Assembly: GCA_963677925.2 (NCBI GenBank)
Contig: CAXXYH010000003.1
Location: 1,376,001-1,440,000 of the forward strand
Origin: Spirochaetia bacterium
GTDB taxonomy: Bacteria > Spirochaetota > Spirochaetia > UBA9216
Direction: 5' to 3'
Length of the DNA stretch: 64,000 bases
Part shown: piece after piece, positions 823 to 25,760 of the stretch
How the letters are laid out: every line of letters begins with the position of its first letter
Position numbering within the stretch: position 1 is the stretch's first letter
Translations under genes and position numbers: made by a program
Notes under the pieces: model-generated
Databases searched by the model: none
The model's input: only the letters and a program-made list of their open reading frames with translations
What the model was told of the DNA's origin: nothing

Positions 823-1740
823 CTATTTGGACAGTTTTGCGTATTCAGCGTCGCTTACAGCTTCGCACCACTGGTTTTTCCCGTCTTTTCCGGGAATCTC
901 TATTGCAATATGTGAAAACCAGGAATCCTTTTTAGCACCATGCCAGTGTTTTACATTCGCAGGAATATATACTACCGAGCCGGGCTCAAGACTGACGGCA
1001 TCCTTGCCCTCTTCCTGGTACCAGCCCTGACCTACTGTACATACAAGCAGCTGCCCGCCGTTTTCGGAAGCATGGTGAATGTGCCAGTTATTCCTGCAAC
1101 CTGGTTCAAAGTTTACATTTGCAAAAAACAGAGGAACCTTGCCGGGTCGTGTAAGCATTTTGATATAGGAACGGCCGATAAAATATTTTTTCAATATAAA
1201 ATTGTACATACCTGTACCGAACATATTGGCCTTGTCGAATTCTTCCTTTGTTTTGATGAGCAGCTTGGAACCCAGCGGTGAGAAATCCTTTAGACCCTTC
1301 CCAGGTTTAAGAGCCTTGTAATAATCATCAGAAACAGGCTCAAGCCATTCATTACTGCACTGTTCACCCGGAATTTCCACTGATATATGTGTGAACCAGC
1401 TGTCTTCCTTTGCTCCGTGCCAGTGCTTAACTTCGGCTGGAATATAGATAAAGGAACCCGCTGAGAGGCTCTGGGCGTTCTTACCCTCCTGCTGGTACCA
1501 GCCTTCACCGGCTGTACAAATCAGAATCTGGCCGCCCCCGCTTTTTGAATGGTGGATATGCCAGTTGTTCCTGCAGCCTGGTTCAAATGTCACATTTGCA
1601 AGGAATACAGGCCAGTCTCCCGGCTTTGCATAAAAGTTAAGAAATGAATTCCCGATAAAATACTGCGCAAACATATCATTGGGAATTCCCTTCCCGAATT
1701 TATTTACTTTCTCAAAATCTTTCTCATTGATATATTTCAT
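823..1740 (-). CDS. Tandem (two-domain) cupin protein
   Basis: Two copies of NVxFEPGCRNNWHIHH..GGQ..C..G.GWYQ..IPA.VKHWHGA. Confidence 0.88.
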   Translation of the reverse strand: MKYINEKDFEKVNKFGKGIPNDMFAQYFIGNSFLNFYAKPGDWPVFLANVTFEPGCRNNWHIHHSKSGGGQILICTAGEGWYQQEGKNAQSLSAGSFIYIPAEVKHWHGAKEDSWFTHISVEIPGEQCSNEWLEPVSDDYYKALKPGKGLKDFSPLGSKLLIKTKEEFDKANMFGTGMYNFILKKYFIGRSYIKMLTRPGKVPLFFANVNFEPGCRNNWHIHHASENGGQLLVCTVGQGWYQEEGKDAVSLEPGSVVYIPANVKHWHGAKKDSWFSHIAIEIPGKDGKNQWCEAVSDAEYAKLSK

Positions 1741-7862: not shown

Positions 7863-7887
7863 AAAAAATCCCGGGGCAACCCGGGAT
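7863..7887 (-). terminator. Intrinsic terminator of the GRE-carrier operon
   Basis: ATCCCGGG-N4-CCCGGGAT perfect stem followed by a T run on the minus strand. Confidence 0.8.
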
Positions 7888-7929: not shown

Positions 7930-9216
7930 CTAGTAAATCCCTATAGCAATCATCACCAGATACAGAGCTATATTAATAAACGGCCATCCAAGAAGAAAAT
8001 TAAAAATAGTTTTCCTGTGACCATCATCATCAACACTTGCAACTACAAGTCCACCGCTTCCGGAGAAAGGTGATACTGCTGTAGCCATAGAACCTACAGC
8101 AACAGCTGCAAAGGCTATTCCGGGATTGAAGCCTCCGGCGATTGCCAATGCGGGAACCAGGGCAAGGAAGGTTGTATTTACGACGAATCCGCTTACGAAC
8201 AGACTCATAATACCGGCAAAAAGAGCAAGCATCATTGGAATAATTCCGGTTGGCACACTGGTGGACAGCCAGTTTGATACCATCTCTATTGCGCCGGTCT
8301 TACTTACAATACCAATCAATGTACCCATTCCGCATAATGTGGTAAGGGCTGAAAGGGGAACTTTTTTGAAAGCTTCCTTTTCATCACCAACCTTGAATAA
8401 CGAAAGAAGAACTACTCCTATGAATGCAATCCAGATAAGGTACACACCTCTTGAGAACTTGACTGCAACAGGATTTCCATGTCCCAGCAGTCCTGCCAAA
8501 GGAGCAGCAACAAGAAGAACAACAAAACCGATTATTACAGCAAGGTTAATTCTCTGCTTTTTATTAAAAGGTTCAGGTTTACTAAGCTCTGGAGCCTTGA
8601 TCTTGTAACCTTTAAAGACTATGTAAGCAATTATAAAAATAATTGTATAAAGGAGTGTAATCTGGAAAAGGGCATGGTTTCCAAAATTATGGGCTTCAGC
8701 CTCGGAATGCCCGCCGAAATTCATTATGAGTTCTCTAAGAAAAATACCAGCTGTACTAATAGGGGTGAACCCGCCGGCACTGATTCCTGACACACATGAA
8801 ACAGCAGCGAGGATGTTATTCATACCTGTTACCTTTGCAATGGTAAGCCCGATAGGAATCATCATAACAGTAGCCCCGTCACCGGCCCCTATTCCAGCCA
8901 TAATAAATGAAAGGATGTACAGAACTATAGGAATGGCCCACGGAATATTCCTTACAGAATAAACAACTTTATCAGCAACTTTTTCGAGTGTTCCGTTCAG
9001 AACCGCAAAACTGTAAAAGAGTGTTACAGAAAACAGAAGAAGAAATAGTCTGGTCGGAAAAACACCGACTAATCCTCGGGGTGATTCACCAAGCACAAAG
9101 ACACCGATAATATAGGCAGCGGTTATAGCCCATAAACCTATATTGGTTTTTGTTTTTGTTCCAATCACAATAACGGCTACTATTGCAATCAAGCTGATAA
9201 TGATGATAGTCATCAA
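7930..9216 (-). CDS. SLC13/MatC-like (di)carboxylate carrier
   Basis: N-terminal KTNIGLWAI..FP..LFLLLFSVTLFYSFAVLNGTLE; C-terminal SPFSGSGG; multi-TM. Confidence 0.8.
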   Translation of the reverse strand: MMTIIIISLIAIVAVIVIGTKTKTNIGLWAITAAYIIGVFVLGESPRGLVGVFPTRLFLLLFSVTLFYSFAVLNGTLEKVADKVVYSVRNIPWAIPIVLYILSFIMAGIGAGDGATVMMIPIGLTIAKVTGMNNILAAVSCVSGISAGGFTPISTAGIFLRELIMNFGGHSEAEAHNFGNHALFQITLLYTIIFIIAYIVFKGYKIKAPELSKPEPFNKKQRINLAVIIGFVVLLVAAPLAGLLGHGNPVAVKFSRGVYLIWIAFIGVVLLSLFKVGDEKEAFKKVPLSALTTLCGMGTLIGIVSKTGAIEMVSNWLSTSVPTGIIPMMLALFAGIMSLFVSGFVVNTTFLALVPALAIAGGFNPGIAFAAVAVGSMATAVSPFSGSGGLVVASVDDDGHRKTIFNFLLGWPFINIALYLVMIAIGIY

Positions 9217-9269: not shown

Positions 9270-11660
9270 TTATACCTCAGCAAAAGCTGTTCGCTCTATA
9301 ATTTCATTCTGCATGTCATTTCCAAGGGCTGTAAAATATGCACTATATCCGGCAACCCTTACTACAAGATCCTGATGCTCATCTGGAGCAGCCTGAGCTT
9401 CAATCAGATCATCCTTGTTTACAATATTGAACTGAATGTGCTTTCCGCCCTGTGAAAAATATGTTTTGATAAGCGAACCAAGCTTTAAAAGATCAGCCCG
9501 GCTTTTCAATGCCGACGGATGAAACTTCATATTCAACAGAGTTGCCTGATAAGTGTCCTGATTAATCTTCATTGCACTCTTAAGTACACCAGTCGGCCCG
9601 TTCTTATCCATACCGTGATTAGGCGACATACTTCCATCAGCAAGTATTTCACCTCGCTTACGTCCGTCCGGGGTGGCGCCGGTAAGGGCTCCGCCCGGCT
9701 GATGGGCTGTGATTGATATTGCAGTTGCTATACCCTTTCCCCCGAAAAAGGATCTTAAGGAAACGAGTTTCTTTTCAAATTTCTCATAAACTTCAGCTGC
9801 AAGTTCATCTACATAGTCAACTCCGTTACCGTACTTTGGAACTGCCAGAAAATCTTTCTGCATTTCTTCAAAACCGACCCAGTCTGAATCGAGAGCTTTG
9901 ACAAGCTCATCCATTGAGTATTTCTTGTCTTCATAGACGAGTTTTTTAACTGCAGCAAGTGAATCAGCAACATTGATACCTCCAACAGGACAGAGGGAGA
10001 GGCTGTTTTCAAACGGAATGGAACGCCTTAAAATATCCTTTCCCTCTTTGACTGCATCAAACATCAATGAAGATCTGAATGGATCAGGAAATAAGTTCTG
10101 CTCGGCTCTTAGTTCAATATTACATTTCTCAACCCCGAGCTCAATGAAGTAATCCATCTGTTTATAGAAGGCATTCTTAAATGCTTCAAAATCTGACATC
10201 TGTGTAACATCACCTGTTTTAATTCCGACAGTTTCATTGGTACCCTTATTAAATCCGTTGTGCATGAATATATCGAAGGCCAACGCAACAACGATAAATC
10301 CGAAAGTTGCAGTCCTTGATTTTCCCGGAATAGCACCATCGAGACAGCCGCATACAATATAATTACGGGCGTCTTCTATGGGCAAACCATGATACTGGTG
10401 AAAGAAATTTATGTAAGATTTATCTCCGATGAAGGCGGGCATTCCAATTCCGGCTTTTACAACTTCAAGGGCCTTTACCATCAGCTCATCAGGTGTTTTA
10501 TCATGTACTCTCAGAGTGAGTGTATGATGAGGTATTTTAGTTTCCATTGCGGCATCAAGCAGAAGATATGTAAGCTTGTTGCTGGCATCATTTCCATCTT
10601 TATCAACACCCCCGATAATAAAATTATGCCATTTAGCCATACCGGCATTTTTTTTCCTGTTCTGCTGACCTGAAACTCGATTTAGTTTGATATCCTTGAT
10701 ACGCAGAAGTTCTAAAAGTTCAATTACTTCCTCATCAGTAGTAATTCCTTTTTCAATATCATTTTTATAAAATGGATACATGTACTGATCAAAACGTCCG
10801 GCTGCAGCTGTAGTTGCAGGATTTATCATTAGAAAGGTGAACCAGAAGCACTGTATCGCTTCAAAAAAAGTTTCAGCAGGTTTGGCAGGTACTTTCGAAC
10901 AGGCTTTAGAAATTCGCATTAGTTCAAGTTTTCTTTCAGGGTCATTTTCTTCCATAGCCATCTCGGCTGCAAGTTCCGAATACCTCTGTGCAAGCCTTAT
11001 GAGGGCTTTATGAACAATAATAACAGAATTAAGAAAATCGACAGCTTCCTGATCAGGAGTTTCGCTAGCTTCCTGAATTTTCAAAGCTTCTTCGCACTCT
11101 GCAATTAAACTTAATGAACCTTCGTTCAGCATCTTTTCATAATCAACTCCAATCAGAAAGAACCCCGGGCCAAGGCCGAGACCGGACTGAGCATAACCAC
11201 CGCCGCTGCCTTCAGCCCCTTTCCAGGGAGGAAGCATTACTCCTGATTTCATGAAAGGCCATAGTTGCTCGCTTTTCATAAATTCAGCACCCATGGCTGA
11301 AATTAGTGTTTCACTGCTGAATTTTTCATTAATTTTCTGTATTTCATCTTCATCTGCAGGATTGATTATGTAATTTTCATTTTTTAATGATTCAATTTCA
11401 TCCGGCGTCCACGTACCATATTCATAATCAATCTCAAGGCCAAAGGGTTTACTTGCCCCTGCTCCCGCAAAAAGTTCATCATCTTCAATAAAAATAGTTA
11501 TTTTTTCAAGAATATTTTTTATAATAGCCGCGCGTCGAAGTACGCTGGGCTGCCCTTCAGTAGCTGAAAGAGTCTGTGTAGCTATTTTAAATTTCTCAAT
11601 ACAAAGAGGGTACTTTTCTACCTTCAGTGTATCTAAAAGCCGTTCAATTCTTGGTGTCAT
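9270..11660 (-). CDS. Glycyl radical enzyme (PFL-like superfamily), reaction unknown
   Basis: 796 aa; C-terminal LVVRVAGYSAYF glycyl loop (Gly771); GRFDQYMYPFY; ATPDGR; Cys loop YIVCGCLDG (Cys439). Confidence 0.95.
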   Translation of the reverse strand: MTPRIERLLDTLKVEKYPLCIEKFKIATQTLSATEGQPSVLRRAAIIKNILEKITIFIEDDELFAGAGASKPFGLEIDYEYGTWTPDEIESLKNENYIINPADEDEIQKINEKFSSETLISAMGAEFMKSEQLWPFMKSGVMLPPWKGAEGSGGGYAQSGLGLGPGFFLIGVDYEKMLNEGSLSLIAECEEALKIQEASETPDQEAVDFLNSVIIVHKALIRLAQRYSELAAEMAMEENDPERKLELMRISKACSKVPAKPAETFFEAIQCFWFTFLMINPATTAAAGRFDQYMYPFYKNDIEKGITTDEEVIELLELLRIKDIKLNRVSGQQNRKKNAGMAKWHNFIIGGVDKDGNDASNKLTYLLLDAAMETKIPHHTLTLRVHDKTPDELMVKALEVVKAGIGMPAFIGDKSYINFFHQYHGLPIEDARNYIVCGCLDGAIPGKSRTATFGFIVVALAFDIFMHNGFNKGTNETVGIKTGDVTQMSDFEAFKNAFYKQMDYFIELGVEKCNIELRAEQNLFPDPFRSSLMFDAVKEGKDILRRSIPFENSLSLCPVGGINVADSLAAVKKLVYEDKKYSMDELVKALDSDWVGFEEMQKDFLAVPKYGNGVDYVDELAAEVYEKFEKKLVSLRSFFGGKGIATAISITAHQPGGALTGATPDGRKRGEILADGSMSPNHGMDKNGPTGVLKSAMKINQDTYQATLLNMKFHPSALKSRADLLKLGSLIKTYFSQGGKHIQFNIVNKDDLIEAQAAPDEHQDLVVRVAGYSAYFTALGNDMQNEIIERTAFAEV

Positions 11661-11918: not shown

Positions 11919-11993
11919 TATAAAACAATAAAAACTACATTAATCTGCTGCATTAGCCTTAATAAATATCAAAAGTATAATTCTGCCTGAAAT

Positions 11994-12020
11994 TGTTTCA
12001 TATTGTTACAGACTGTCAGT
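11994..12020. promoter_or_regulatory. Putative upstream activator sequence for the + strand sigma54 promoter
   Basis: TGTTTCA-TAT-TGTTACA-GAC-TGTCAGT, the same 10-bp-period motif in inverted orientation. Confidence 0.6.
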
Positions 12021-12118
12021 ACTTTCAATAAGAATGTTTCACTGCATAAAGACACATTCTAACTATGTTCGCGAACTTACTGCGAAGGAAAAGGAATTTC
12101 CCTGTATTTAACAGGAAT

Positions 12119-12134
12119 TGGCATATATTTTGCA
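12119..12134 (+). promoter_or_regulatory. sigma54 -24/-12 promoter of the binding-protein gene
   Basis: TGGCAT-ATATT-TTGCA. Confidence 0.88.
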
Positions 12135-12156
12135 ATTCTCATTCCGGAGGTTAAAT

Positions 12157-13746
12157 ATGAAAAATTTTCATATCAAAAAATCAGTTCCAAAAGTATTAAT
12201 TGCAGCAGGTCTACTTGTTATGCTGCTGGCGGTATCACAGTTTTCATCCTGTGTCACCACGGACGCTTCAGCAAAACAGCTGAATGTAGCTTTGTCTACT
12301 CTGGCCGAAGAAAACTTTCTTCCCTGGAACGGAAGTACAGTCAGAAAGCCCTATCTGGATTGTATTTACGAATACATCGCGTATATCGATCCGGAAACAT
12401 CAGAACCGATCCCAGGCCTTGCTGAAAGCTGGAAATACTCTGATGACGGCCGGACTGTAACCCTGTTCATCAGAAAAGGAATTCAATTCCAGCAAGGCTG
12501 GGGAGAGTTTTCAGCTGAAGATGTTAAGTTTTCCATCGACAGAATGCTTGATCCTTCCGCTGTAGGCGGCCAGGCTTCAGCATTAAGAATGGCCGTTGCT
12601 TCGGTTGAAGCTGCGGAGAAGTATAAAGCCGTTATTACCCTGAAGGCTCCGGATCCTGTATTTGTTCAGGGTTATCTTGGAAATGGTGTAGCTATTCCCA
12701 TGGCATGTAAAAAATACATTGAAGAGATGGGAGAAGACTATGCGAATGATAACCCGGTAGGAACCGGAGCTTACACTCTGGGCGGTCATGTTGAAGGTAC
12801 ATCCGTTTCTGTACAAAAAGTCGAAGGAATGGACGAACACTGGCGTGTGAAACCGGAATTTGATACCATCAATTTTCTCGCTGTTTCAGACGAAGCTGAG
12901 CGCGTAGCTATGCTTAAAAATGGAGATATCGATCTTGCTCCGATAAACTGCAGCTCCATTACAGAAGTTGAACAGGCTGGATTGGAGACTGTTTCAATTT
13001 ATCATAATTATACTGCGGTTCTCCGTTTCGGCGGTACCAGCGGCATGTACCCTAACCCTGATGTTCCCTGGGCAAAAAAAGAGGTTCGACAGGCACTTAA
13101 TTATGCTGTAGACAGAGATAAGCTTATCAATGAAGTCCTTAAAGGAGAAGGAGATCCGGCAGGGATTGACCCCGATGCAAATGAGTTTAAAGATATAAAA
13201 GCTTACCCCTACGATCCTGCAAAGGCAAAAGCACTTCTGGCACAGGCCGGGTATCCTGATGGATTTGATGTAACCATCATGGCTGCGGCAACCATACCTG
13301 GTGCAGAACTCCCTATGCTTTCCGAAATGGTAGCAGCCCAATGGAATGAAATAGGTATTCGCGCAGAAGTGAAAGAAATCACAAATGCAGAAATTAGAGA
13401 AGCATGGACTACCGGAAAATATACCGATGTAATATGGACCCACAGAACTTACCCATGTTCAAACCTTGTTACTTCATTCCTTGTAATGAATTCCACCAGA
13501 AGCCCTCATGGTTCATTCTCCAATGAGGACACTGACAAAAGGATTATGAGTATTGCAATGGAAACTGATCCGGATCTTAGACTTTCCAAAATCCAGGAGA
13601 TGGCACAGTGGCTTAATGATGAGGGAGCAAGTATATATCTTGTTCATGGCAATGAGCCTTATGGAATAAGCAGCAAGGTAGGAAACTGGCCGGCTATCAA
13701 TCAGAATGTTACTAATTTTGATCAGATTTCTTTCGGTTCCAGATAA
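12157..13746 (+). CDS. Family 5 (DppA/OppA/NikA-like) ABC solute-binding lipoprotein
   Basis: PGLAESW..SDDG, FSAEDVKFS, PVGTGAY, VRQALNYAVDR, YDPAKAKALLAQAGY; lipobox-like FSSC; start moved to ATG 12157 (GGAGG RBS) because the ORF-track start overlaps the sigma54 promoter. Confidence 0.9.
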   Translation: MKNFHIKKSVPKVLIAAGLLVMLLAVSQFSSCVTTDASAKQLNVALSTLAEENFLPWNGSTVRKPYLDCIYEYIAYIDPETSEPIPGLAESWKYSDDGRTVTLFIRKGIQFQQGWGEFSAEDVKFSIDRMLDPSAVGGQASALRMAVASVEAAEKYKAVITLKAPDPVFVQGYLGNGVAIPMACKKYIEEMGEDYANDNPVGTGAYTLGGHVEGTSVSVQKVEGMDEHWRVKPEFDTINFLAVSDEAERVAMLKNGDIDLAPINCSSITEVEQAGLETVSIYHNYTAVLRFGGTSGMYPNPDVPWAKKEVRQALNYAVDRDKLINEVLKGEGDPAGIDPDANEFKDIKAYPYDPAKAKALLAQAGYPDGFDVTIMAAATIPGAELPMLSEMVAAQWNEIGIRAEVKEITNAEIREAWTTGKYTDVIWTHRTYPCSNLVTSFLVMNSTRSPHGSFSNEDTDKRIMSIAMETDPDLRLSKIQEMAQWLNDEGASIYLVHGNEPYGISSKVGNWPAINQNVTNFDQISFGSR

Positions 13747-16758: not shown

Positions 16759-18039
16759 TTAGAAAATATCGAAGAATCTTACTGCTGACAGAAGTGCTCC
16801 GAATAATGACATCAGGATAGCTGTAGGAAGCAGCTGCCTTGTCATCTTATCCTGCTGATCTTCAGCAGTTGAAGCTACCATAACAGCACCGCCGCTTGAG
16901 AACGGTGAAATTGCAGAAGACATAGCACCTACAAAAATAACTATAATCAGTGTTGAAACATCAATTCCGGTTACCTTTGCAACTGATATTGCAAGCGGAT
17001 AAAGAAGAGGACAGACTACACCAAGTCCGCTTGAGAAGAAGCTGAGAAATGCAGCAAAAATACTGAAAGCCGGAACAATAATAAACGGTGTTCCTACCCT
17101 GCCAAGAATCTCAGCCATTCTATCAACAAGGCCGGCCTCTGTTGCTACAAGCATCAGCATGTTGATACCGGCTATTGTAATGATAGTCGGGAAATTGATT
17201 TTCTGTAAAATTTTCTTCTCATCACCAAGCTTCATTGCCATAGCTGCTATTGCGGCAAGAACCATGATTACCTGAGGCTGACAAACCTGTCTGAGCAGCA
17301 TAGTAATCGGATTTCTTACAAAAGTAGAAAGTATAGTAGGAATTACCATCAAACAGCATGCAATAATTATGAGAATTATTGTTTTTTTCTGAACAGGATT
17401 AAAGTCTTCAGGCTTTTCAACAACTACATTTTTTGCTTTATAACCTTTGAGTACAAAGTATGCAATTATACACATTATAATTCTTGCAACACTATCTGCA
17501 AGCCAGGTTCGCATCTGAATACCAAACGCACCGTCAACGCCATTCTGTTCAAGGATAGACAATGATATAACTCCACCATATCCATTGAAGGGGTTACCGG
17601 CGCCGAGATAGACAGCACATGTTATTACAATTGCGACAAGCAGCGGAGAAATTCCTGCAGCAGCAGCCATAGCAAATACAATAGGACCGATGAAAATCGG
17701 TGTTGAGGGACCAGCACCCAATGCTGATACTACGGTTCCAACAACAAGAATTACAAGCGGAATTAATTTTGCCTGACCATGCATGGCAAACAGCATTTTC
17801 TTTCCAAGCAGGGCCATTGTTCCGTTCTCATTTGCATAAGTAAAAAACAATCCGATTGATATCAGAAAGAAAACAATTGTGTTAGGCCAGTAGTTAATAA
17901 TTGTACTGACACGCAGACCTAACATCAGTGTTCCGATAAGGAACGCAGCACCCATAGCGATAACACCGGAGTTGCACTTGAACTTCCAACCGATTACGAT
18001 TGCCGCTATTATAGCAATCAAAGAAACAGTTAATGCCAT
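16759..18039 (-). CDS. SLC13/MatC-like (di)carboxylate carrier, paralog of 7930..9216
   Basis: KCNSGVIAM..WP..VFFLISIGLFF.YANENGT; SPFSSGGA. Confidence 0.8.
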   Translation of the reverse strand: MALTVSLIAIIAAIVIGWKFKCNSGVIAMGAAFLIGTLMLGLRVSTIINYWPNTIVFFLISIGLFFTYANENGTMALLGKKMLFAMHGQAKLIPLVILVVGTVVSALGAGPSTPIFIGPIVFAMAAAAGISPLLVAIVITCAVYLGAGNPFNGYGGVISLSILEQNGVDGAFGIQMRTWLADSVARIIMCIIAYFVLKGYKAKNVVVEKPEDFNPVQKKTIILIIIACCLMVIPTILSTFVRNPITMLLRQVCQPQVIMVLAAIAAMAMKLGDEKKILQKINFPTIITIAGINMLMLVATEAGLVDRMAEILGRVGTPFIIVPAFSIFAAFLSFFSSGLGVVCPLLYPLAISVAKVTGIDVSTLIIVIFVGAMSSAISPFSSGGAVMVASTAEDQQDKMTRQLLPTAILMSLFGALLSAVRFFDIF

Positions 18040-18105
18040 TAAAAGACCTCCTAAATATATTAAGAGCTATAGATAATTATTTCTATAGCTCTTATTTTTT
18101 TTGTT

Positions 18106-19374
18106 TTACTTCTTTGCTTCTTTTGCTTTTGCCCGTCTGTCATCAATTGATTCAAATAAAGCCTGCAGACGGGTTCTAACCTGTGCTTCATTGAAATAAC
18201 TCTGATCGGTATGATCCAGCTCAAGAACGATTGCAGGAATACCATATTCCTTCTCAACCATGGCGCACATATCATATGAGCCCATACCCCATGGACGGCA
18301 GGTATGCGGTGAGTGTATGATTACAGCATCAATCTGAAATCCTTCAATATACTTTCTTACCTGAGTTCTGAATTTTGTTTCAAAGTTTATAGAATAGCCG
18401 CTGTTGCTGAATTCGCATCCTTCTGAAAACAGCGGATCATCCGGATGCAGTCCATCCGGTGGATAGGCATCTTCGATATATTCGGAATCTCTTCCAAATC
18501 CATATGTACCGTTTACAAGAACCGCTCCGTTCTCATTGAAAATTCTTGCGAGCTTGCCGACTGCGTACCATGGAAAATTTCCACGCCACATAAGTCTGTA
18601 TTTTTCATTATCAGATACACCAATCCCCTTGCTTGCCCTGTCAATAACTTCTTCTGCAAAAGCTTTGTACATTTCTGCAGCAGACTTGTTTCTCATAGTC
18701 AGACTTGGAACCATTGCAACAGCGCCATCAATAAAACTGGCAGGTGCCGGAACAGCTTTTACAGTCTCAAGAATAAGTTTTCTCCAGATACCCATTTCTC
18801 TGATTTCATGGATATTTTCCTTAAGTCTGTCGTAGTCAAAGGGTCTGCCTGTTATCTCTTCAAGGAACTCAATAAATTCCTTGATCTGATCTCTGGTGTA
18901 ATGAGCATTATCTCTCAGCTGCTGAGGATCTGATTCATAGAGAAAGGGCATATCAAGTACGAATACAGGTACATTGAAAATCTTTCCGAGACAGTAGGAC
19001 CACTGCATCATACTCGGACAGGCGTTTCCAAGTACCAGAAAATCGGGTTTGGGAACCTGAAATCTTTCGGGAATATCAACACCGTCAACCATCATAAGAG
19101 CCTGACCGATATTAATTTTTGCATATGAACAGCACTCAACACCAAGACCGGCTGCCTTTGAGTAGTCCATGTAAATGTCCTGAAGCTGAGCAGAAGCAAT
19201 TCTTGCCGCAGTATTTTCAGCCAGAAAACAGCTGATACCATGAACATTCATTACTTCGTAGGGAGCTGGTCCCATACACCAGGCAACAGTGTCTGCTCTT
19301 TCTCTGAGGTCATCATAGAACTCGTCCATTATTTTATTAATAACTGTAGTTGCTTGTATTTTATTAATTGCCAT
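18106..19374 (-). CDS. 2-hydroxyacyl-CoA dehydratase/BCR family subunit (alpha, HgdA/FldB-like)
   Basis: AEN.AA, CCSYAKIN, PKPDFLV..NAC, HTCRPW, ELDH.D..Q..TRLQA; start taken at MAINKIQ (19374). Confidence 0.85.
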   Translation of the reverse strand: MAINKIQATTVINKIMDEFYDDLRERADTVAWCMGPAPYEVMNVHGISCFLAENTAARIASAQLQDIYMDYSKAAGLGVECCSYAKINIGQALMMVDGVDIPERFQVPKPDFLVLGNACPSMMQWSYCLGKIFNVPVFVLDMPFLYESDPQQLRDNAHYTRDQIKEFIEFLEEITGRPFDYDRLKENIHEIREMGIWRKLILETVKAVPAPASFIDGAVAMVPSLTMRNKSAAEMYKAFAEEVIDRASKGIGVSDNEKYRLMWRGNFPWYAVGKLARIFNENGAVLVNGTYGFGRDSEYIEDAYPPDGLHPDDPLFSEGCEFSNSGYSINFETKFRTQVRKYIEGFQIDAVIIHSPHTCRPWGMGSYDMCAMVEKEYGIPAIVLELDHTDQSYFNEAQVRTRLQALFESIDDRRAKAKEAKK

Positions 19375-19375
19375 C

Positions 19376-20548
19376 TTATACCGCCATATTCTCAGTAATA
19401 CTCTCAAAGAAACTTTGGAGTCTTGTTTTCACCTGTCCTGTCTGCTCATTTTCAATATCAATAAACAGGTCGAGATCCTTTTTACCCTGCTGAGTAAGCT
19501 GCCTGTGAGCAAGAAAGTAGGAATAGTAGTGAGGCTCACAGTTCTGAACCATGATATTTATAACTGCTGCTGCACCGGTATCTTCAAGCATCTTAAGCTG
19601 GTAATCACCCAGTGTACGATTTTCATACTTTGTCGGGCATACTGAAACCGGATTAAAATAAGCCTGAGCCAGGGCCTCCATCGGATCAAGATCAGTTTGA
19701 TACAATGTATTGAAATATCTTGAGCCTACGTAAAGATCATCATCAATAATGACACCTCCGGTGCTCTCAATTGACTCAAGTACATAATCCTTACAAATTT
19801 CACAAATACTTCCGCTTACAATTACAGGAACATCTTTTGATTTTTCAAACGAAGAAGCCTTTTCTTCAAGAAGTGTCAGCAGCTCCTTAAGAAGGCTGCT
19901 GTGCTCTGTCTTAGGCATACACATTGAGGCCTGTACTATTCTTGAGACATCAAGTCCGCTTAGAATTCCAGGATTTGCTCTTCTGATATCATACAGCTTG
20001 ATCATAAGAGACTTATTTTCATTATAAATCGCGATTGCCTTCTTTAAATCTTCATCACTGAATTCAGACCCTGCAATTTCGCTGATAATCCCTCTCATTT
20101 TTGCCATTTCACGGCGAGTAAAATCCTGTGTAAGGCCCCTCTCAAGCTCAGGAGGAAAGTACATAAACTGGACCTTTTTAACTTTATCAGTAATGTAAGG
20201 GATAAGATCACCAATCATTCTAATTTCATGACAGCAGTCCTTTATCATTAGACAATCTACGTAACTTAAGTCATCAGTTAAAGCCTGCTCTACCATACTG
20301 CGAACATATCCGCACATATGACTCTGAACGTGTGCATTTGCAGCTACAATTGGTTTATTCTGTTCAAGAAGAACCATTGGAATCATCCCTGCAGCTTCAA
20401 TAAGCGGCTCAGGAACATCCAGACCTGCACAGGAAACAACTTTTTTATTTGTTTTCTGTTTCCATTCACGCATTGTTGCGTGCGGATCTGCAGCAATGGA
20501 TGCGAACTTATCCAACATCTGCTGCAATCCAGTAGCGTTATCTGCCAT
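19376..20548 (-). CDS. 2-hydroxyacyl-CoA dehydratase/BCR family subunit (beta, HgdB/FldC-like)
   Basis: PEPLIEAAG, HMCGYVRS, DCC, DDLYVGSRYF, NCEPH, GQVKTRLQSF. Confidence 0.85.
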   Translation of the reverse strand: MADNATGLQQMLDKFASIAADPHATMREWKQKTNKKVVSCAGLDVPEPLIEAAGMIPMVLLEQNKPIVAANAHVQSHMCGYVRSMVEQALTDDLSYVDCLMIKDCCHEIRMIGDLIPYITDKVKKVQFMYFPPELERGLTQDFTRREMAKMRGIISEIAGSEFSDEDLKKAIAIYNENKSLMIKLYDIRRANPGILSGLDVSRIVQASMCMPKTEHSSLLKELLTLLEEKASSFEKSKDVPVIVSGSICEICKDYVLESIESTGGVIIDDDLYVGSRYFNTLYQTDLDPMEALAQAYFNPVSVCPTKYENRTLGDYQLKMLEDTGAAAVINIMVQNCEPHYYSYFLAHRQLTQQGKKDLDLFIDIENEQTGQVKTRLQSFFESITENMAV

Positions 20549-20559
20549 TATAATTTCTC

Positions 20560-21366
20560 CTATTCTACAATTTGGTTAATATGCTGTTTCAAGCCTCTTT
20601 CTTTTGCTGTAACAGCAGCTCCTAAAGCACCGATAATCTGAGGTTCCGGAGCTATCAGTAATTTTGTTTCAAGTAATTCTTCAAAAGCTTTAACAACCCC
20701 AAGATTTTTTGCTACTCCACCGCTCATAGCGATTGGTGCAGTCAGCCTGGCTTTTTTAACCAGAAGATAAACCCTTCGTGCAACAGCTGAATGAATTCCA
20801 GCCATAACATTTACAGGATTAGTCCCCTTCTTGGAAATCTGAGAGATTACCTCAGATTCTGCAAAAACTGTGCATATACTGCTGATGGGGAGAGCTTCAG
20901 TAGCTTCCAGAGAGCGTTTTCCCATTTCATTTACTGAAAGCCCCATGATTCCAGCCATGACATCCAGGAATCTTCCCGTACCGGCAGCACAGCGATCGTT
21001 CATAGCAAATGTAATGATACGTCCTGCTTCATCGATTGAAATGGCCTTGCTGTCCTGACCTCCGATGTCTATTACACCTCTGGCTTCGGGAAAGTAGTAG
21101 TTAATACCCTTTCCATGGCAACCAATTTCGGTCACCTGACCGTCAACAAATTCCAGCAGTTCACGTCCGTATCCTGTTGCAATTGAATAGTCAATGTCAT
21201 CCTGCGAATATCCAGCTTCATCAAGACACTGTTTCAAACACCTGTTAGCTGCATCTTCCGGTGCAAATCCCGTTAAAACAATGGAAGAGGAAAGAAGTTT
21301 TCCTTCCTCATCCAGTATTGCCACTTTTGTTGTTGTAGAACCTATATCAATTCCGACAAAAACCAC
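20560..21366 (-). CDS. ATP-dependent [4Fe-4S] dehydratase activator (HgdC/FldI/HadI-like)
   Basis: GIDIGSTTTK, ATGYGR, DIGGQDSK, MNDRCAAGTGRF, CTVFAESE; GTG start. Confidence 0.93.
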   Translation of the reverse strand: MVFVGIDIGSTTTKVAILDEEGKLLSSSIVLTGFAPEDAANRCLKQCLDEAGYSQDDIDYSIATGYGRELLEFVDGQVTEIGCHGKGINYYFPEARGVIDIGGQDSKAISIDEAGRIITFAMNDRCAAGTGRFLDVMAGIMGLSVNEMGKRSLEATEALPISSICTVFAESEVISQISKKGTNPVNVMAGIHSAVARRVYLLVKKARLTAPIAMSGGVAKNLGVVKAFEELLETKLLIAPEPQIIGALGAAVTAKERGLKQHINQIVE

Positions 21367-21395
21367 TTGCTATACCTACCTTATTGGGAATCAGA

Positions 21396-22637
21396 TTAAG
21401 CTCTGAACTGGTTGATTACACCAGCGTTTTCCCATGAATCAACTTCAGATTCATCGAAGCCGTATTCCTTTAAAATCTCTACAGTGTTCTCTCCCATTCT
21501 TGGGGCGTGCCTGTCAATTCTTGCAGGAGTATCGCTGAGGCTGAAAGGAAATCCCATACAGTAATTTTTTCCATAAGTGGGGTGCTCTACCTCAATAAAC
21601 ATCTGGGAGCCTCTTTTTGCTGTGTCCAGAACTGCTGTCCGGGGGCTGATAATTGGTGCATTCGGAACACCGGCTTTTGAAAGAATCACATCCCATTCAG
21701 CTGTTGTTTTCTGCATAAAGATTTCTCCGAAAACTCTATCGAGTTCAGGATGGTTTTCACGTCTTAAAGAATTAGTAGCGAAACGTTCATCAGGGCCCAT
21801 CTCAGGTACGCCAAGAGCTTTTGTAAGTTCCACCCACAGCTTCTGACTTCCGCATGTTATAAAAACCCAGCTGTCTTTTGTTTTGTAAGCCTGGCAGGGA
21901 ACCAGTTCAGGATGACCAAGCCCGGTAGGCTTAAAATCATAATCATCGTTTGCGAAAATAGGTCCTACATACTGCTGCAGATACTGCAGTGTTGAATTAA
22001 AAAGTGACACCATAACCTTCTGCCCCTTACCGGTGACTGATCGGTTATACAGAGCCATCATGATTGCCTCAGTACAGTTATGACATCCTGCTATATCGGA
22101 TATCGAAGGACCGGGTTTTGCTATGTGATCTTCATCAAGACCTGTACATGCAATGGTTCCGGCTCGTGCCTGAATTACAACGTCCATTCCCCCGTCCTTG
22201 GCGTTGGGGTGATCAGGCGGAAATGCTGTTATCTGAGCCCAAACAAGTTTTGGATTTACCTTATGAACTTCTTCATATCCGTATCCCATAGCTTCAATGG
22301 TTCCCGGGCGGAAATTACTTACCATGATGTCTGCTGTTTCAAGCATTTTCCAAATGACTTTTTTTCCAGCTTCACTTCGGTAATCTACACAGATACCTTC
22401 CTTGTTCCGGTTCATTGAAAGAAATGCATCACCGCCATGTATGGGCGCATCCTTTTCCATCCACTTGGTACTGTTGATTCCACGGGTGGCATCGCCTTTG
22501 ATACCTTCAACCTTTATGACTCTAGCGCCATAATCAGCAAGGATTGTAGTACATGCCGGGCCGGCAAGTGCTATGGTTAAATCTACAACAGTAATACCAT
22601 CAAGCGGTCTTCGGTTGCCTTCTGCTGAAACACTCAT
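21396..22637 (-). CDS. Class III (CaiB/BaiF) CoA-transferase
   Basis: PLDGITVVDL..AGP..LADYGARVIKVE, NRNK, NFRPG, GMD, APRMGE. Confidence 0.93.
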   Translation of the reverse strand: MSVSAEGNRRPLDGITVVDLTIALAGPACTTILADYGARVIKVEGIKGDATRGINSTKWMEKDAPIHGGDAFLSMNRNKEGICVDYRSEAGKKVIWKMLETADIMVSNFRPGTIEAMGYGYEEVHKVNPKLVWAQITAFPPDHPNAKDGGMDVVIQARAGTIACTGLDEDHIAKPGPSISDIAGCHNCTEAIMMALYNRSVTGKGQKVMVSLFNSTLQYLQQYVGPIFANDDYDFKPTGLGHPELVPCQAYKTKDSWVFITCGSQKLWVELTKALGVPEMGPDERFATNSLRRENHPELDRVFGEIFMQKTTAEWDVILSKAGVPNAPIISPRTAVLDTAKRGSQMFIEVEHPTYGKNYCMGFPFSLSDTPARIDRHAPRMGENTVEILKEYGFDESEVDSWENAGVINQFRA

Positions 22638-22706
22638 ATAGTTTCTCCTCCATTAGTAAAATTAGTTTTTGAAAAATAGATTGATTTATAAAAATCGTAT
22701 TAATGC

Positions 22707-23870
22707 CTAATTAATCAGACTGAAAATTCCTGCGGCACCCATACCTCCACCTATGCACATAGAGATGAGAGCATACTTGCCGTTATTGTCTTTAAGATAA
22801 TCCAGAGCTTTTTCGGTCAGAATGGTTCCCGTAGCACCCATAGGGTGACCAAGTGCCATGGCTCCGCCGTAAGGATTCACCTTTTCAGGATTCATCCCGA
22901 GTTCTCTAGTACAGGCTAATGCCTGAGAAGCAAAAGCCTCGTTAAGCTCGATTACATCCATCTGCTCCAGACTGAGACCAGTTTTTTTAAGAAGTTTAGG
23001 AATTGCATAAATCGGCCCCATTCCCATCAAGCTGGGGTCACAGCCTGCAACGGCAAAACCTTCAAACTTTGCTATTGGTTTCATTCCAAGCTCTTCCGCT
23101 TTCTTTCTTTCCATCACAACAGCATAGGCAGCAGCATCAGTCATCTGTGATGATGTAGCGGCAGTCACAAGGCCGTTTTCCCTGAATGGTGGATCCATTG
23201 ATGCCATCTTTTCCAGAGAGGTTCTGAGATTTCCTTCAGCGTCAGCAAGTATTCCATCGTCTTCAGAAATCCAGACACCCTGATCATTAGACATAGGAAT
23301 AATACTTGGAGAAAGTTTACCGGCCATCCGGGCTACAGAAGCCCTTCTGTGTGACTCCAAAGCCATCTCTTCCATTTCCGCTCTGGTAATTTTGTATTTA
23401 TCTGCTACTCTTTCTGCGGTTTCTCCCATAGACATTATTGCTGAGGGATAATTCTCTTTTATCCATGGATTAAGATACGGTTCCTGAAAAGGATCAAAGC
23501 AGTCAGTCATAAACTCAGCGCCGCCTGCAACAGCTATGTCATATTCACCGGCAATGATTGCATTTGAAGCAGCAGCTATAGTCTGCAGGCCTGAAGAGCA
23601 GAATCTGTTTACTGTCTGTGCAGGGATTTCTTCCGGCAGCTCTGCCCTATTGACAATAAGCCGGCTTACATTCATATCCATTTCCTTTAAAGGGAATGCA
23701 CAGCCTGTAAGAACATCACCGATTAATTCCGGACTCAACTGTGGAACTTTTTCCAGCACTCCTTTCAAAGTCATTGCTGCATAATTAATTGGATGGGTCT
23801 GACTGAAGCCGCCCTTCCTTGCCCTGCAGCAGGCACTTCTTCCGTATGCTACAATTACAGCTTCTCTCAT
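22707..23870 (-). CDS. Thiolase (acetyl-CoA C-acyltransferase)
   Basis: [37 protein letters not shown]. Confidence 0.95.
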
Positions 23871-23885
23871 TTTAAGTCTCCTAAT

Positions 23886-24737
23886 CTATTTGTAGTCGTA
23901 CCAGCCGCGTCCTGACTTTCTGCCGAAACGCCCGTCTTTAACCATTTCAGTGACAACTTCAGGACAGCTCCAGTCGGTGACCGGAAGACCTTCAAGGGAA
24001 TCACAAACATGAGTGAATGTATCAAGACCCGAAAGATCCATCATTTCGAATGGTCCGAGAGGATGGTTCAAACCGAGTTTCATTGCTGTGTCTATATCTT
24101 CAGCTGTTGCTATTCCGTCCGTATAACAGCGGAGAGCTTCTAGCACGAATGCAAAAAGACAGCGGTTAACAATAAAACCGGGTTCATCTTTTTTACATTC
24201 CACGGCTGTTTTCTTCATACCGGCGGCAGTCTCCTTAACCGTTTGAATTGTTTCATCACTGGTCGCTGTGCACCTGATCAACTCAACAAGTTTCATTACA
24301 GCCACTGGAAAGAAGAAATGCATTCCTACACAGCGTTCCTTGTGGTCACATCCTGACATTATTTCTTCAACCGACATCGAGGATGTGTTGGTGCAGAATA
24401 TGGCATCAGGCCTGCAGACTTCAGATAAGCCGTTGAAGATTTCCTGTTTCAGTTCAAGAACTTCGGGGGCTGCTTCAATAATGAGGTCACATTTACTCAT
24501 GTCAGATATTTCAGTAGTGCAGCTTATTCGTTCTAAAGTTTTTTCTGCTTCATCAGCATCCTGTTTACCGGCCGCTACTCTTTTCTCCATGGCTGCTTTC
24601 ATTTTCTGTACAGCATTACTGCAGAATTCAATTTTTATATCTCGTAAAACTACGTCGTAACCGGCCGAGGCTGCTATCTGAGCAATACCTGCGCCCATTT
24701 GTCCCGCTCCGATTACACCAATTGTTTTCACTATCAT
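23886..24737 (-). CDS. hbd: 3-hydroxyacyl-CoA (3-hydroxybutyryl-CoA-type) dehydrogenase
   Basis: GAGQMGAG, TNTSS, GMHFF.P, PGFIVNR, HPLGPF. Confidence 0.9.
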   Translation of the reverse strand: MIVKTIGVIGAGQMGAGIAQIAASAGYDVVLRDIKIEFCSNAVQKMKAAMEKRVAAGKQDADEAEKTLERISCTTEISDMSKCDLIIEAAPEVLELKQEIFNGLSEVCRPDAIFCTNTSSMSVEEIMSGCDHKERCVGMHFFFPVAVMKLVELIRCTATSDETIQTVKETAAGMKKTAVECKKDEPGFIVNRCLFAFVLEALRCYTDGIATAEDIDTAMKLGLNHPLGPFEMMDLSGLDTFTHVCDSLEGLPVTDWSCPEVVTEMVKDGRFGRKSGRGWYDYK

Positions 24738-24749
24738 TTAAGTGGCTCC

Positions 24750-25664
24750 TTAATTATGCTGAAAGATCGGTTTACGTTTTTCGAGCATAGCCCTCATACC
24801 CTCTTTCTGGTCATGGGTTTTAAAAAGCTCTGTAAACTCTACCGTCTCTCTTTCTTTACCGTAGGTCATGCCCTCTTTCACTGAAAAGTTGATTGTATTC
24901 TTTGCCGCGGCAACAGCTTTACCCGGCATCTGAATCAGTCTTGCAGCAACAGCTGAGGCCTTCTGACAAATAGCATCAGCCTCTGCAGCGGCAGCAGCAG
25001 ACTCACATTCACTGTAAAGAAGTTTCATCTTTTCTAAATTGCCGTTATTTTCACGTTTTGCAGATTCGAGTGAAGCCTTGGCTTCCGCAGACGCCTTATC
25101 CAGCTCGGAACTTCCTGGCTCGAACCAGTTTAATAACCCCATATCAAAAGCAGCTTTACCGCTGATTTTTTCATTAAGTAGAATTAATTGCTTAGCAATA
25201 GAAGGTCCCAGCAATGAAGCCGCACGAACGCAGCCGTTGGCTCCCGGGATTACACCAAGTCCGACTTCCGGAAACGACAATAAAGTTCTCGGACCGCCAA
25301 CCCTGAAATCACATGCCAAAGCAAGCTCAAAACCTCCTCCGAATGCAAAACCGCAAATTGCAGCTATAGTCGGAATCTGAAGATTTTCAATTTCATCATT
25401 TATTTTTATTGCAAGCTGACATACTTCGTGAGCCTTTACAGGATCTGCATCAACCATATCGGTGATATCAGCTCCGGCAGCAAAGGCTCTTGTTCCTGCT
25501 CCGCTTATGACAACAGCTCTTATTGATGAATCCTTTTTTATTTCCTGAATTGTGGAATAAAGAAGTTGATTCAATTCAAGATTCAGTGCATTGAGCTGAT
25601 GTGGTCGATTCAATAATATTTCTGCAATACCATCTGCTACTTCAAGCAGGACTAATGGCTCCAT
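24750..25664 (-). CDS. Enoyl-CoA hydratase/isomerase (crotonase family) with internal insertion
   Basis: LNRP..LNAL, AFAAGADI, GGGFELALACD, PEVGLGVIPG; extra Ala/Glu-rich segment. Confidence 0.9.
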   Translation of the reverse strand: MEPLVLLEVADGIAEILLNRPHQLNALNLELNQLLYSTIQEIKKDSSIRAVVISGAGTRAFAAGADITDMVDADPVKAHEVCQLAIKINDEIENLQIPTIAAICGFAFGGGFELALACDFRVGGPRTLLSFPEVGLGVIPGANGCVRAASLLGPSIAKQLILLNEKISGKAAFDMGLLNWFEPGSSELDKASAEAKASLESAKRENNGNLEKMKLLYSECESAAAAAEADAICQKASAVAARLIQMPGKAVAAAKNTINFSVKEGMTYGKERETVEFTELFKTHDQKEGMRAMLEKRKPIFQHN

Positions 25665-25720
25665 TCCTAACCTCAGTGTATTAATATTTAATTTTCAATT
25701 ATTTTTAAATTCAGAAATAA

Positions 25721-25746
25721 AGGCGGAGCCGGTTTACGGTCCGCCT
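25721..25746 (-). terminator. Intra-operon hairpin/terminator after the FadH-like gene
   Basis: AGGCGGA...TCCGCCT stem followed by TTTATTT on the minus strand. Confidence 0.6.
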
Positions 25747-25760
25747 ATTAATTTAATGTT

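Follow-up and report, generated by a model that had tools for sequence, protein, structure and literature searches.

Glycyl radical enzymes (GREs) draw interest for anaerobic chemistry that matters to gut health (trimethylamine, H2S, p-cresol, skatole) and for hydrocarbon degradation. Which reaction such an enzyme carries out when aspartate takes the place of the glutamate next to its thiyl cysteine is the question raised by a gene of a Spirochaetia bacterium (GenBank assembly GCA_963677925.2). The gene lies in a stretch of 64,000 nucleotides of contig CAXXYH010000003.1 (positions 1,376,001 to 1,440,000), hereafter called the window, at positions 9270..11660 on the minus strand. A first-pass annotation of these letters had proposed an uncharacterised GRE class with a non-canonical C-G-C-L-D active-site loop. 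We find that the protein belongs to a distinct clade of GREs carrying Cys-x-Asp and a remodelled β1 loop, and we propose that it is a functional enzyme acting on an imported carboxylic acid; among the reactions considered, radical decarboxylation is the one that we tentatively place first.

The open reading frame (P0001, designated GRE4 among the seven GRE paralogues of the genome) encodes 796 residues, which match the PFL-like domain PF02901 (513 bits) and the Gly_radical domain PF01228 (108 bits) of Pfam. With its barrel and glycine-radical domains, an R-V-x-G glycyl loop and a cysteine at the position of Cys433 of glycerol dehydratase, the product has the traits of the GRE superfamily. The glycyl loop, R768-V-A-G771-Y-S (9342..9359, minus strand), was placed by script and is intact, and the codons of C437-G-C439-L-D441 lie at 10338..10352 (minus strand). 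Both the loop and this numbering had been given correctly at first pass: the string YIVCGCLDGAIPG starts at residue 434, which fixes C437, C439 and D441. Aligned by HMMER to glycerol dehydratase (1R8W), the protein has C439 at the position of Cys433 and D441 at that of Glu435. According to the accessible text of a June 2026 review (PMC13450708), Glu435 is the base and His164 the proton donor of glycerol dehydratase. The alignment shows C439 as the predicted thiyl cysteine, with D441 taking the place of the catalytic glutamate of C-x-E enzymes. Where glycerol dehydratase has the β1 segment with His164, the protein carries a Gly-rich loop, GSGGGYAQSGLGLGPGFFLIG (residues 151-171; 11148..11210, minus strand), in which G153-155, S159, G160, G162-G166 and L169 are invariant in the alignment of relatives A1. 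The early remark that a Gly-rich strand stands where eliminases often carry a histidine was right, as His164 is replaced by L169, behind a 6-residue Gly-rich insertion; the N-G-H at 279-281 of glycerol dehydratase is deleted. Two hallmarks of GRE eliminases and isomerases are altered, with Asp441 instead of the Glu of C-x-E and L169 instead of the leaving-group His.

The substitution is not peculiar to this protein. A homologue search gave 1452 scored matches, and in the best 120 of these, which were read for motifs, G-C-[LV]-D and RVAGYS were found without exception. The genome itself (5.04 Mb in 4 contigs) contains seven PFL-like GRE genes; five, this one included, encode G-C-[LMV]-D together with the Gly-rich loop and the other two encode G-C-x-E. 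Pairwise identities among the five Asp paralogues range from 43 to 74%. In a wider alignment, described below, Asp occupies Cys+2 in 17/17 rows of the Asp clade versus 3% of 120 other GRE representatives. Because it is kept in the 120 best homologues, in five of seven paralogues and in all 17 clade rows, the Asp is neither a chance change nor a strain quirk, and D441 cannot be set aside as a strain-specific variant of close homologues with C-x-E. The cysteine two residues before C439 behaves differently: C437 was found in only 2 of the same 120 matches, the query being one, with Thr the usual residue there, and in 3 of the 17 Asp-clade rows. Of the CxCxD pattern first suggested, the C-x-D part is therefore general, but the extra Cys is sporadic and was not borne out as part of the motif, so that on the alignments the loop is best written G-C-x-D and not C-G-C-x-D. 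PFL and TdcE belong to the same superfamily, and two cysteines in the Cys loop are a trait that they share with this particular protein. However, PFL uses the adjacent pair Cys418-Cys419 (PMC13450708, accessible text), whereas a Gly separates the two cysteines here. As C437 is sporadic it is no evidence for a PFL-like cysteine pair, and two-cysteine chemistry of that type was rejected.

The extent of the group was delimited with a HMMER scan of 1.84 billion cluster representatives, which returned 8018 matches at E ≤ 1e-3. The query and its paralogues were added to the best 150 representatives, and all were aligned. Four features, namely G-C-[LVI]-D, the Gly-rich insertion, the three-residue deletion and an H-x-P-G-G segment, are common to the rows down to about 37% identity, and rows below about 500 bits resemble ordinary eliminases (G-C-V-E, G-I-G-H, E-S-N-G-H-S). 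Trees were built with FastTree (142 rows of at least 700 residues) and with a quick IQ-TREE run under LG+G4 on 66 rows, namely 22 of the clade, 8 of its sister group, 34 randomly chosen others and the two C-x-E paralogues. In both trees a clade of 22 rows forms one side of a branch, with a Shimodaira-Hasegawa-like approximate likelihood-ratio (SH-aLRT) support of 100. Seventeen of these rows have Asp at Cys+2, and the other five have E, Y, P or G there or lack the Cys altogether; four more Asp rows are scattered outside the clade in the 142-row tree. In the sister group of 8 rows (SH-aLRT 99) the Cys+2 position is occupied by V, L, I, H, M or E, and one member of this group, P0225, matches the arylacetate decarboxylase AAD (7E7L) at 1189 bits; the clade lies beside this group and not within it. 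Clade and sister group together are split from the 36 others with a support of 97.6 in the 66-row IQ-TREE.

Residues were called clade-specific when present in at least 88% of the 17 Asp-clade rows and in at most 15% of the 120 other rows. They are E76, F136, L169, R320, G331, A342, W344, T382, Y416 and D441, followed by R449, R546, W594, I648, G656 and D723. At position 169, 88% of clade rows carry Leu and 50% of the 120 other representatives carry His. Taken together, alignments and trees give solid support to a deep and widespread GRE branch in which Asp stands in for the catalytic Glu and β1 and the adjoining active-site loops are rebuilt. Within the class it is patchily distributed: of 40 other genomes, 3 have a match at E ≤ 1e-150. 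Two members of the clade, P0135 and P0143, have unusual radical loops (R-I-G-G-C-S and R-L-G-G-G-S) and form a strongly supported pair in the 142-row FastTree; P0143 also has Ala at the position expected for the thiyl Cys (G-A-L-S).

The protein was compared with curated family models and with solved structures. Its best NCBIfam equivalog is the HpsG-type sulfopropanediol dehydratase, which it fails at 520.6 bits for a cut-off of 1000, and the other eliminase models were failed likewise (score/cut-off: HpfG 423/1000, HypD 463/1100, CutC 458/1050, PflD 422/1109), as were the decarboxylases IAD (448/1100) and HPAD (366/1150) and the formate lyase TIGR01255 (127 versus 994 bits). For the subfamily model TIGR01774 it scored 531 versus 678 bits; the five Asp paralogues all fail this cut-off (514-539 bits), which the two Glu paralogues exceed (795 and 984 bits). 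The 8 sister-group rows and two odd clade members were tested as well, and none of them reached an NCBIfam equivalog cut-off. Among PDB entries glycerol dehydratase comes first by sequence (472 bits), with AAD at 407 bits and the X-succinate synthase-type entries 4PKC and 9O8U at 317 and 330 bits. An AlphaFold2 model based on a 30-sequence alignment (mean predicted local distance difference test, pLDDT, 79.8; predicted template-modelling score 0.85) superposes on all solved GREs with template-modelling (TM) scores of 0.79-0.89 in Foldseek, at identities of 34% or less. With the equivalog cut-offs missed and the best structure at 34%, the protein falls in no characterised GRE cluster at high identity, and the proposal of an uncharacterised class, defined by Cys-x-Asp and the remodelled β1 loop, is supported. 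The ESM Atlas gave generic PFL-family clusters; the automatic name found there, 'putative 4-hydroxyphenylacetate decarboxylase large subunit', was taken as a label and not as evidence.

The closest solved enzymes, glycerol dehydratase of Clostridium butyricum (1R8W/1R9D) and 1,2-propanediol dehydratase (5I2G, 9RCO), have the same ten-stranded barrel (Foldseek TM 0.86-0.87) and give the best matches among solved structures also by sequence (472 and 417 bits). The glycyl loop, the position of the thiyl Cys and an acid at Cys+2 are common to them and to this GRE. According to the same review, as far as its text is accessible, an acid at Cys+2 is a hallmark of all eliminases and isomerases, and C-x-E is kept in all six C-O eliminases as well as in CutC, the C-S lyases and the three isomerases (PMC13450708). 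These likenesses, together with the fact that a dehydratase is the best-scoring equivalog, make a 1,2-elimination (by a dehydratase or a C-N/C-S lyase) on a hydroxy- or amino-substituted carboxylic acid a possible reaction, doubtful in itself although nearly as likely as decarboxylation. C439 would take a hydrogen from the carbinol carbon, D441 would deprotonate the hydroxyl as Glu does in glycerol dehydratase, CutC and IslA, the neighbouring group would leave, and the Gly-rich loop with the clade-specific Arg residues would hold the carboxylate(s). However, identity to these dehydratases is only 30-34%, and the protein has Asp and not Glu, fails the TIGR01774 cut-off that they define, has lost the N-G-H and, like 88% of clade rows, carries Leu where glycerol dehydratase has His164, which protonates the leaving group. 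Every eliminase equivalog cut-off is missed by about half, and both trees place the clade with the AAD group, apart from the C-x-E eliminase-type representatives. Nor does this gene have microcompartment or aldehyde-handling neighbours, which leads to the question of what does surround it.

The GRE gene is followed after 53 bp, on the same strand, by a gene for a MatC_N/CitMHS-type anion transporter of 428 residues (7930..9216, minus strand; Pfam). Behind the transporter gene a consensus scan found a terminator-like hairpin of 8 pairs, 6 of them G-C, followed by a T run (7868..7887, minus strand), which probably ends a two-gene transcript of GRE and transporter. The 457-bp region upstream of the GRE contains two overlapping weak sigma-70-like matches (9/12 each; 11974..12019, minus strand), to be regarded as candidates only, as such matches are no more frequent in this region than in shuffles. 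Rfam matched nothing in the window, so there is no riboswitch to hint at a ligand. According to blastn, the segment 11670..7930, which comprises exactly the GRE and the transporter, duplicates the GRE3 locus at 73% identity over 3750 nt; GRE3 is a 74%-identical paralogue, and its neighbouring transporter is 84% identical to the one studied here.

Genes for a MerR-type regulator and for a radical-SAM activase lie upstream of the GRE3 cassette. Remnants of either were looked for in the window and none was found (best tblastn E 0.88). In the genome two activases exceed the cut-off of TIGR02494 (360 and 323 bits), one directly upstream of GRE3 and the other beside GRE2, and no genome protein passes that of TIGR02493. 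Since the window holds no activase remnant and only these two genome activases pass the cut-off, activation would have to occur in trans, most plausibly by the activase beside GRE3. The same facts could be read as signs of decay: a redundant paralogue, its activase and regulator lost when the cassette was copied and itself never activated, in a genome where two activases serve seven GREs. In a sister species the closest relative of this GRE is of the GRE3 type (73%), and a GRE6-like copy in that species (locus L038, C9:322209-323744), which matches only residues 281-792, is interrupted by an in-frame TAG and is probably a pseudogene. We nevertheless consider decay very improbable for GRE4. The frame is open over 796 codons, and the protein keeps the majority residue at 110 of the 112 positions where at least 88% of the 16 other clade rows agree. 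An 86%-identical orthologue, P0002, lies on an independent metagenome contig, so the lineage has been maintained. The transporter partner is equally intact, and the lack of an adjacent activase is common here, being shared by five of the seven GREs. These seven genes are located at C3:710217, C3:1385270 (this window), C3:1625515, C3:1774632, C4:213550, C4:1339526 and C4:1359309. GRE5 and GRE7 adjoin TctABC tripartite tricarboxylate transporters, GRE5 being also near a MerR/GyrI-like regulator and GRE7 beside MmgE/PrpD and PGA_cap genes; GRE6 adjoins a Dpp-type ABC system.

Neighbourhoods of relatives point to the same kind of companion. A single-protein search of genome contigs gave 3 loci, and a metagenome scan with alignment A1 gave 185 relatives, of which 80 loci were analysed (52-68% identity). 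The pool comprised 87 loci (80 metagenome, two genome and the five of this genome), many of them on short contigs. The most frequent neighbour clusters were an activase (28/87 loci), a PucR-type regulator (23), the MatC/CitMHS carrier (19), PGA_cap (14), MmgE/PrpD (12) and SBP_bac_5 (11). GntR-FCD regulators, PrpR-like sigma-54 activators and URO-D-like proteins occurred at 9 loci each, followed by the family III CoA-transferase (8), DctM (5) and subunits of 2-hydroxyacyl-CoA dehydratase (3). Some transporter cluster was present in 44 of the 87 loci. At the 73 loci with a called GRE its immediate neighbour was a same-strand MatC-type carrier in 15 cases, a divergent PucR gene in 14 and an activase in 13. 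The regular companions are carboxylate carriers (MatC/CitMHS, Tct, TRAP, MFS, Dpp-type), and the enzymes nearby act on di-/tricarboxylates or CoA esters. We infer a carboxylic acid as substrate class because of these carriers and neighbour enzymes, the gained Arg residues and the Gly-rich loop; the conserved Arg residues and the loop could clamp an anion. For the different or larger substrate suggested at first pass, this evidence would point to a carboxylic acid. Among the roughly 30 recurrent neighbour clusters scanned there was no aldehyde or alcohol dehydrogenase and no microcompartment shell protein, which argues against an elimination. A single relative (L041, 66% identity) speaks in favour of elimination, its GRE row including an aldehyde dehydrogenase together with a GlcDEF-like 2-hydroxyacid oxidoreductase set.

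Two peculiarities were noted at other loci. At the metagenome loci L054, L058 and L077 the gene just upstream of the GRE, on its strand, encodes a radical-SAM protein of about 340 residues with a SPASM domain; it takes the usual place of the ferredoxin-type activase and may be an alternative activase. A cytochrome P450-like frame (cluster 35, about 415 residues), an odd partner for an oxygen-sensitive GRE, was noted at L103, L105 and also L094; at L103 and L105 it stands immediately upstream of a GRE frame of 1152 residues, which may be a start-codon artefact.

The neighbours also bear on a third possibility, namely that the enzyme converts a di-/tricarboxylate or its CoA ester by a chemistry that would be new or rare among GREs, such as an isomerisation, a skeleton rearrangement, a C-C lyase reaction or one resembling fumarate addition, the Gly-rich loop serving as carboxylate or phosphate clamp. 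MmgE/PrpD, family III CoA-transferase, 2-hydroxyacyl-CoA dehydratase, TctABC and the PrpR-like activator, which accompany the relatives, are typical of the metabolism of branched di-/tricarboxylates and acyl-CoA, and the invariance of the Gly-rich loop would suit such a clamp. Within the window, moreover, a row of 2-hydroxyacyl-CoA dehydratase, CoA-transferase and β-oxidation genes ending in a second MatC-like carrier lies 5 kb away. Against this, neither the cassette nor its duplicate contains a CoA-handling gene, no small subunits like those of X-succinate synthases were noticed beside the gene, although no search was aimed at them, and no positive sign favours a particular one of these reactions. 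We regard such a chemistry as unlikely.

Four points lead us to prefer, tentatively, radical decarboxylation. A decarboxylase belongs to the sister clade, no downstream enzyme accompanies the minimal cassette, and the His of eliminases is gone; as the examples of HPAD and IAD show, decarboxylases too make use of an acid at Cys+2. AAD of Olsenella scatoligenes, whose group is sister to the clade in both trees, is a single subunit of about 800 residues, acts on a carboxylic acid and, like this GRE, has an insertion in the β1 region; it differs in matching at 407 bits only, in reading G-C-V-L-H from the Gly before the cysteine onwards, and in having neither the Gly-rich motif nor the three-residue deletion. 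HPAD and IAD are GRE decarboxylases with an acid at Cys+2 (Glu505 and Glu502), for which a role in proton transfer is proposed in the accessible text of PMC13450708. They differ from this GRE in that the acid is Glu and not Asp, and in their equivalog scores given above. HPAD requires a small subunit; none was noticed beside this GRE, with no search aimed at small subunits.

In the decarboxylation that we envisage, an activase acting in trans would place the radical on G771, as in all GREs, and homology suggests that it would be relayed from there to C439. D441 would replace the Glu of C-x-E as the acid/base beside the thiyl radical. That Glu normally rests on backbone amides of the Cys loop, a site taken by a water in IAD, and the Glu of IAD reaches its substrate through a water (PMC13232127, accessible text). 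As Asp is one methylene shorter, it might give a similar arrangement and leave the amide site free for a water or for a carboxylate or hydroxyl of the substrate. The substrate would be an organic acid imported by the presumably co-transcribed MatC/CitMHS-type carrier, and the product would exit the cell without further dedicated enzymes.

Several observations weigh against decarboxylation. AAD, the closest characterised relative in the tree, has Leu at Cys+2, that is no acid, so kinship with AAD does not explain the Asp. By similarity the dehydratases are nearest, glycerol dehydratase reaching 472 bits and TM 0.87 versus 407 bits and Foldseek rank 43 for AAD. Genes that imply further metabolism, and not a stand-alone decarboxylation, accompany many relatives, with MmgE/PrpD at 12, PGA_cap at 14 and family III CoA-transferase at 8 loci, in addition to the GlcDEF-like set and aldehyde dehydrogenase of L041. 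Both trees are midpoint-rooted products of short searches on the representatives nearest to the query, with HPAD, IAD, PAD and PFL left out. Finally, no pocket geometry backs any substrate: the segments of the AlphaFold2 model with pLDDT below 50 (69-77, 147-166, 281-284, 329-343, 655-658, 674-680) mostly coincide with the clade-specific loops, and because these active-site loops have low confidence the model is uninformative on the pocket. They may be mobile lids that become ordered on substrate binding, or the alignment of 30 sequences may have been too shallow.

Some other genes of the window deserve mention. The row 5 kb from the GRE (16759..27776, minus strand), all on one strand up to the second MatC-like carrier, encodes two HGD-D subunits, a BcrAD/HgdC-type ATPase, a family III CoA-transferase, a thiolase, a 3-hydroxyacyl-CoA dehydrogenase, an enoyl-CoA hydratase and an enoate/dienoyl reductase with OYE and Pyr_redox_2 domains, and looks like a module for 2-hydroxyacid fermentation. 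HGD-D pairs and the same CoA-transferase family also adjoin Cys-x-Asp GREs at the metagenome loci L043, L044 and L047. Divergent from the GRE, an SBP_bac_5 solute-binding protein (12118..13746, plus strand) stands without adjacent permease or ATPase genes; at the 11 loci with this cluster it is usually accompanied by full Dpp-type ABC genes. Further away, a bicupin (823..1740, minus strand) scores 209.5 bits, for a cut-off of 140, with the NCBIfam model of (R)-mandelonitrile lyase, in two stretches, and adjoins cyclophilin-like proteins and an AraC regulator.

No curated family model, solved structure or publication that we found covers the Cys-x-Asp clade, which is apparently unstudied. A term search of PMC13450708 gave no occurrence of 'CXD' or 'aspartate'; the accessible text of this review states that entire GRE clades still await validation. 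Full-text searches yielded no paper on the clade, although a mention in supplements or subscription papers is possible. In the accessible portions of two further papers, a Desulfitobacterium proteome study concerns isethionate lyase and the AARE paper is silent on the Cys loop. The reaction of this GRE is probably one not yet described. A more specific proposal, which we hold to be rather improbable, is a GRE class for decarboxylation or other C-C cleavage of non-aromatic di-/tricarboxylic acids, which with its carrier would form a minimal two-gene module, where electrogenic substrate/product exchange could conserve energy. If this is true, both the role and the substrate class would be new for GREs, and the five paralogues would represent a small family of modules that differ in their uptake system (MatC-type, TctABC, Dpp-type ABC).

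The clade can be recognised by the diagnostic motifs G-C-x-D, the Gly-rich loop G-S-G-G-G...G-L-G-P-G and A-I-S-I-x-x-H-Q-P-G-G, to which the set of clade-specific Arg residues, the sister relation to a decarboxylase clade and the recurrent link to carboxylate uptake may be added. With a paralogue that has its own activase in the same genome, and with a simple cassette of GRE and transporter, it offers entry points that make it a worthwhile target for biochemistry. If its reaction proves new, the clade would add a class to the catalogue of GREs and would test how far the rule of 'Glu as base' reaches.

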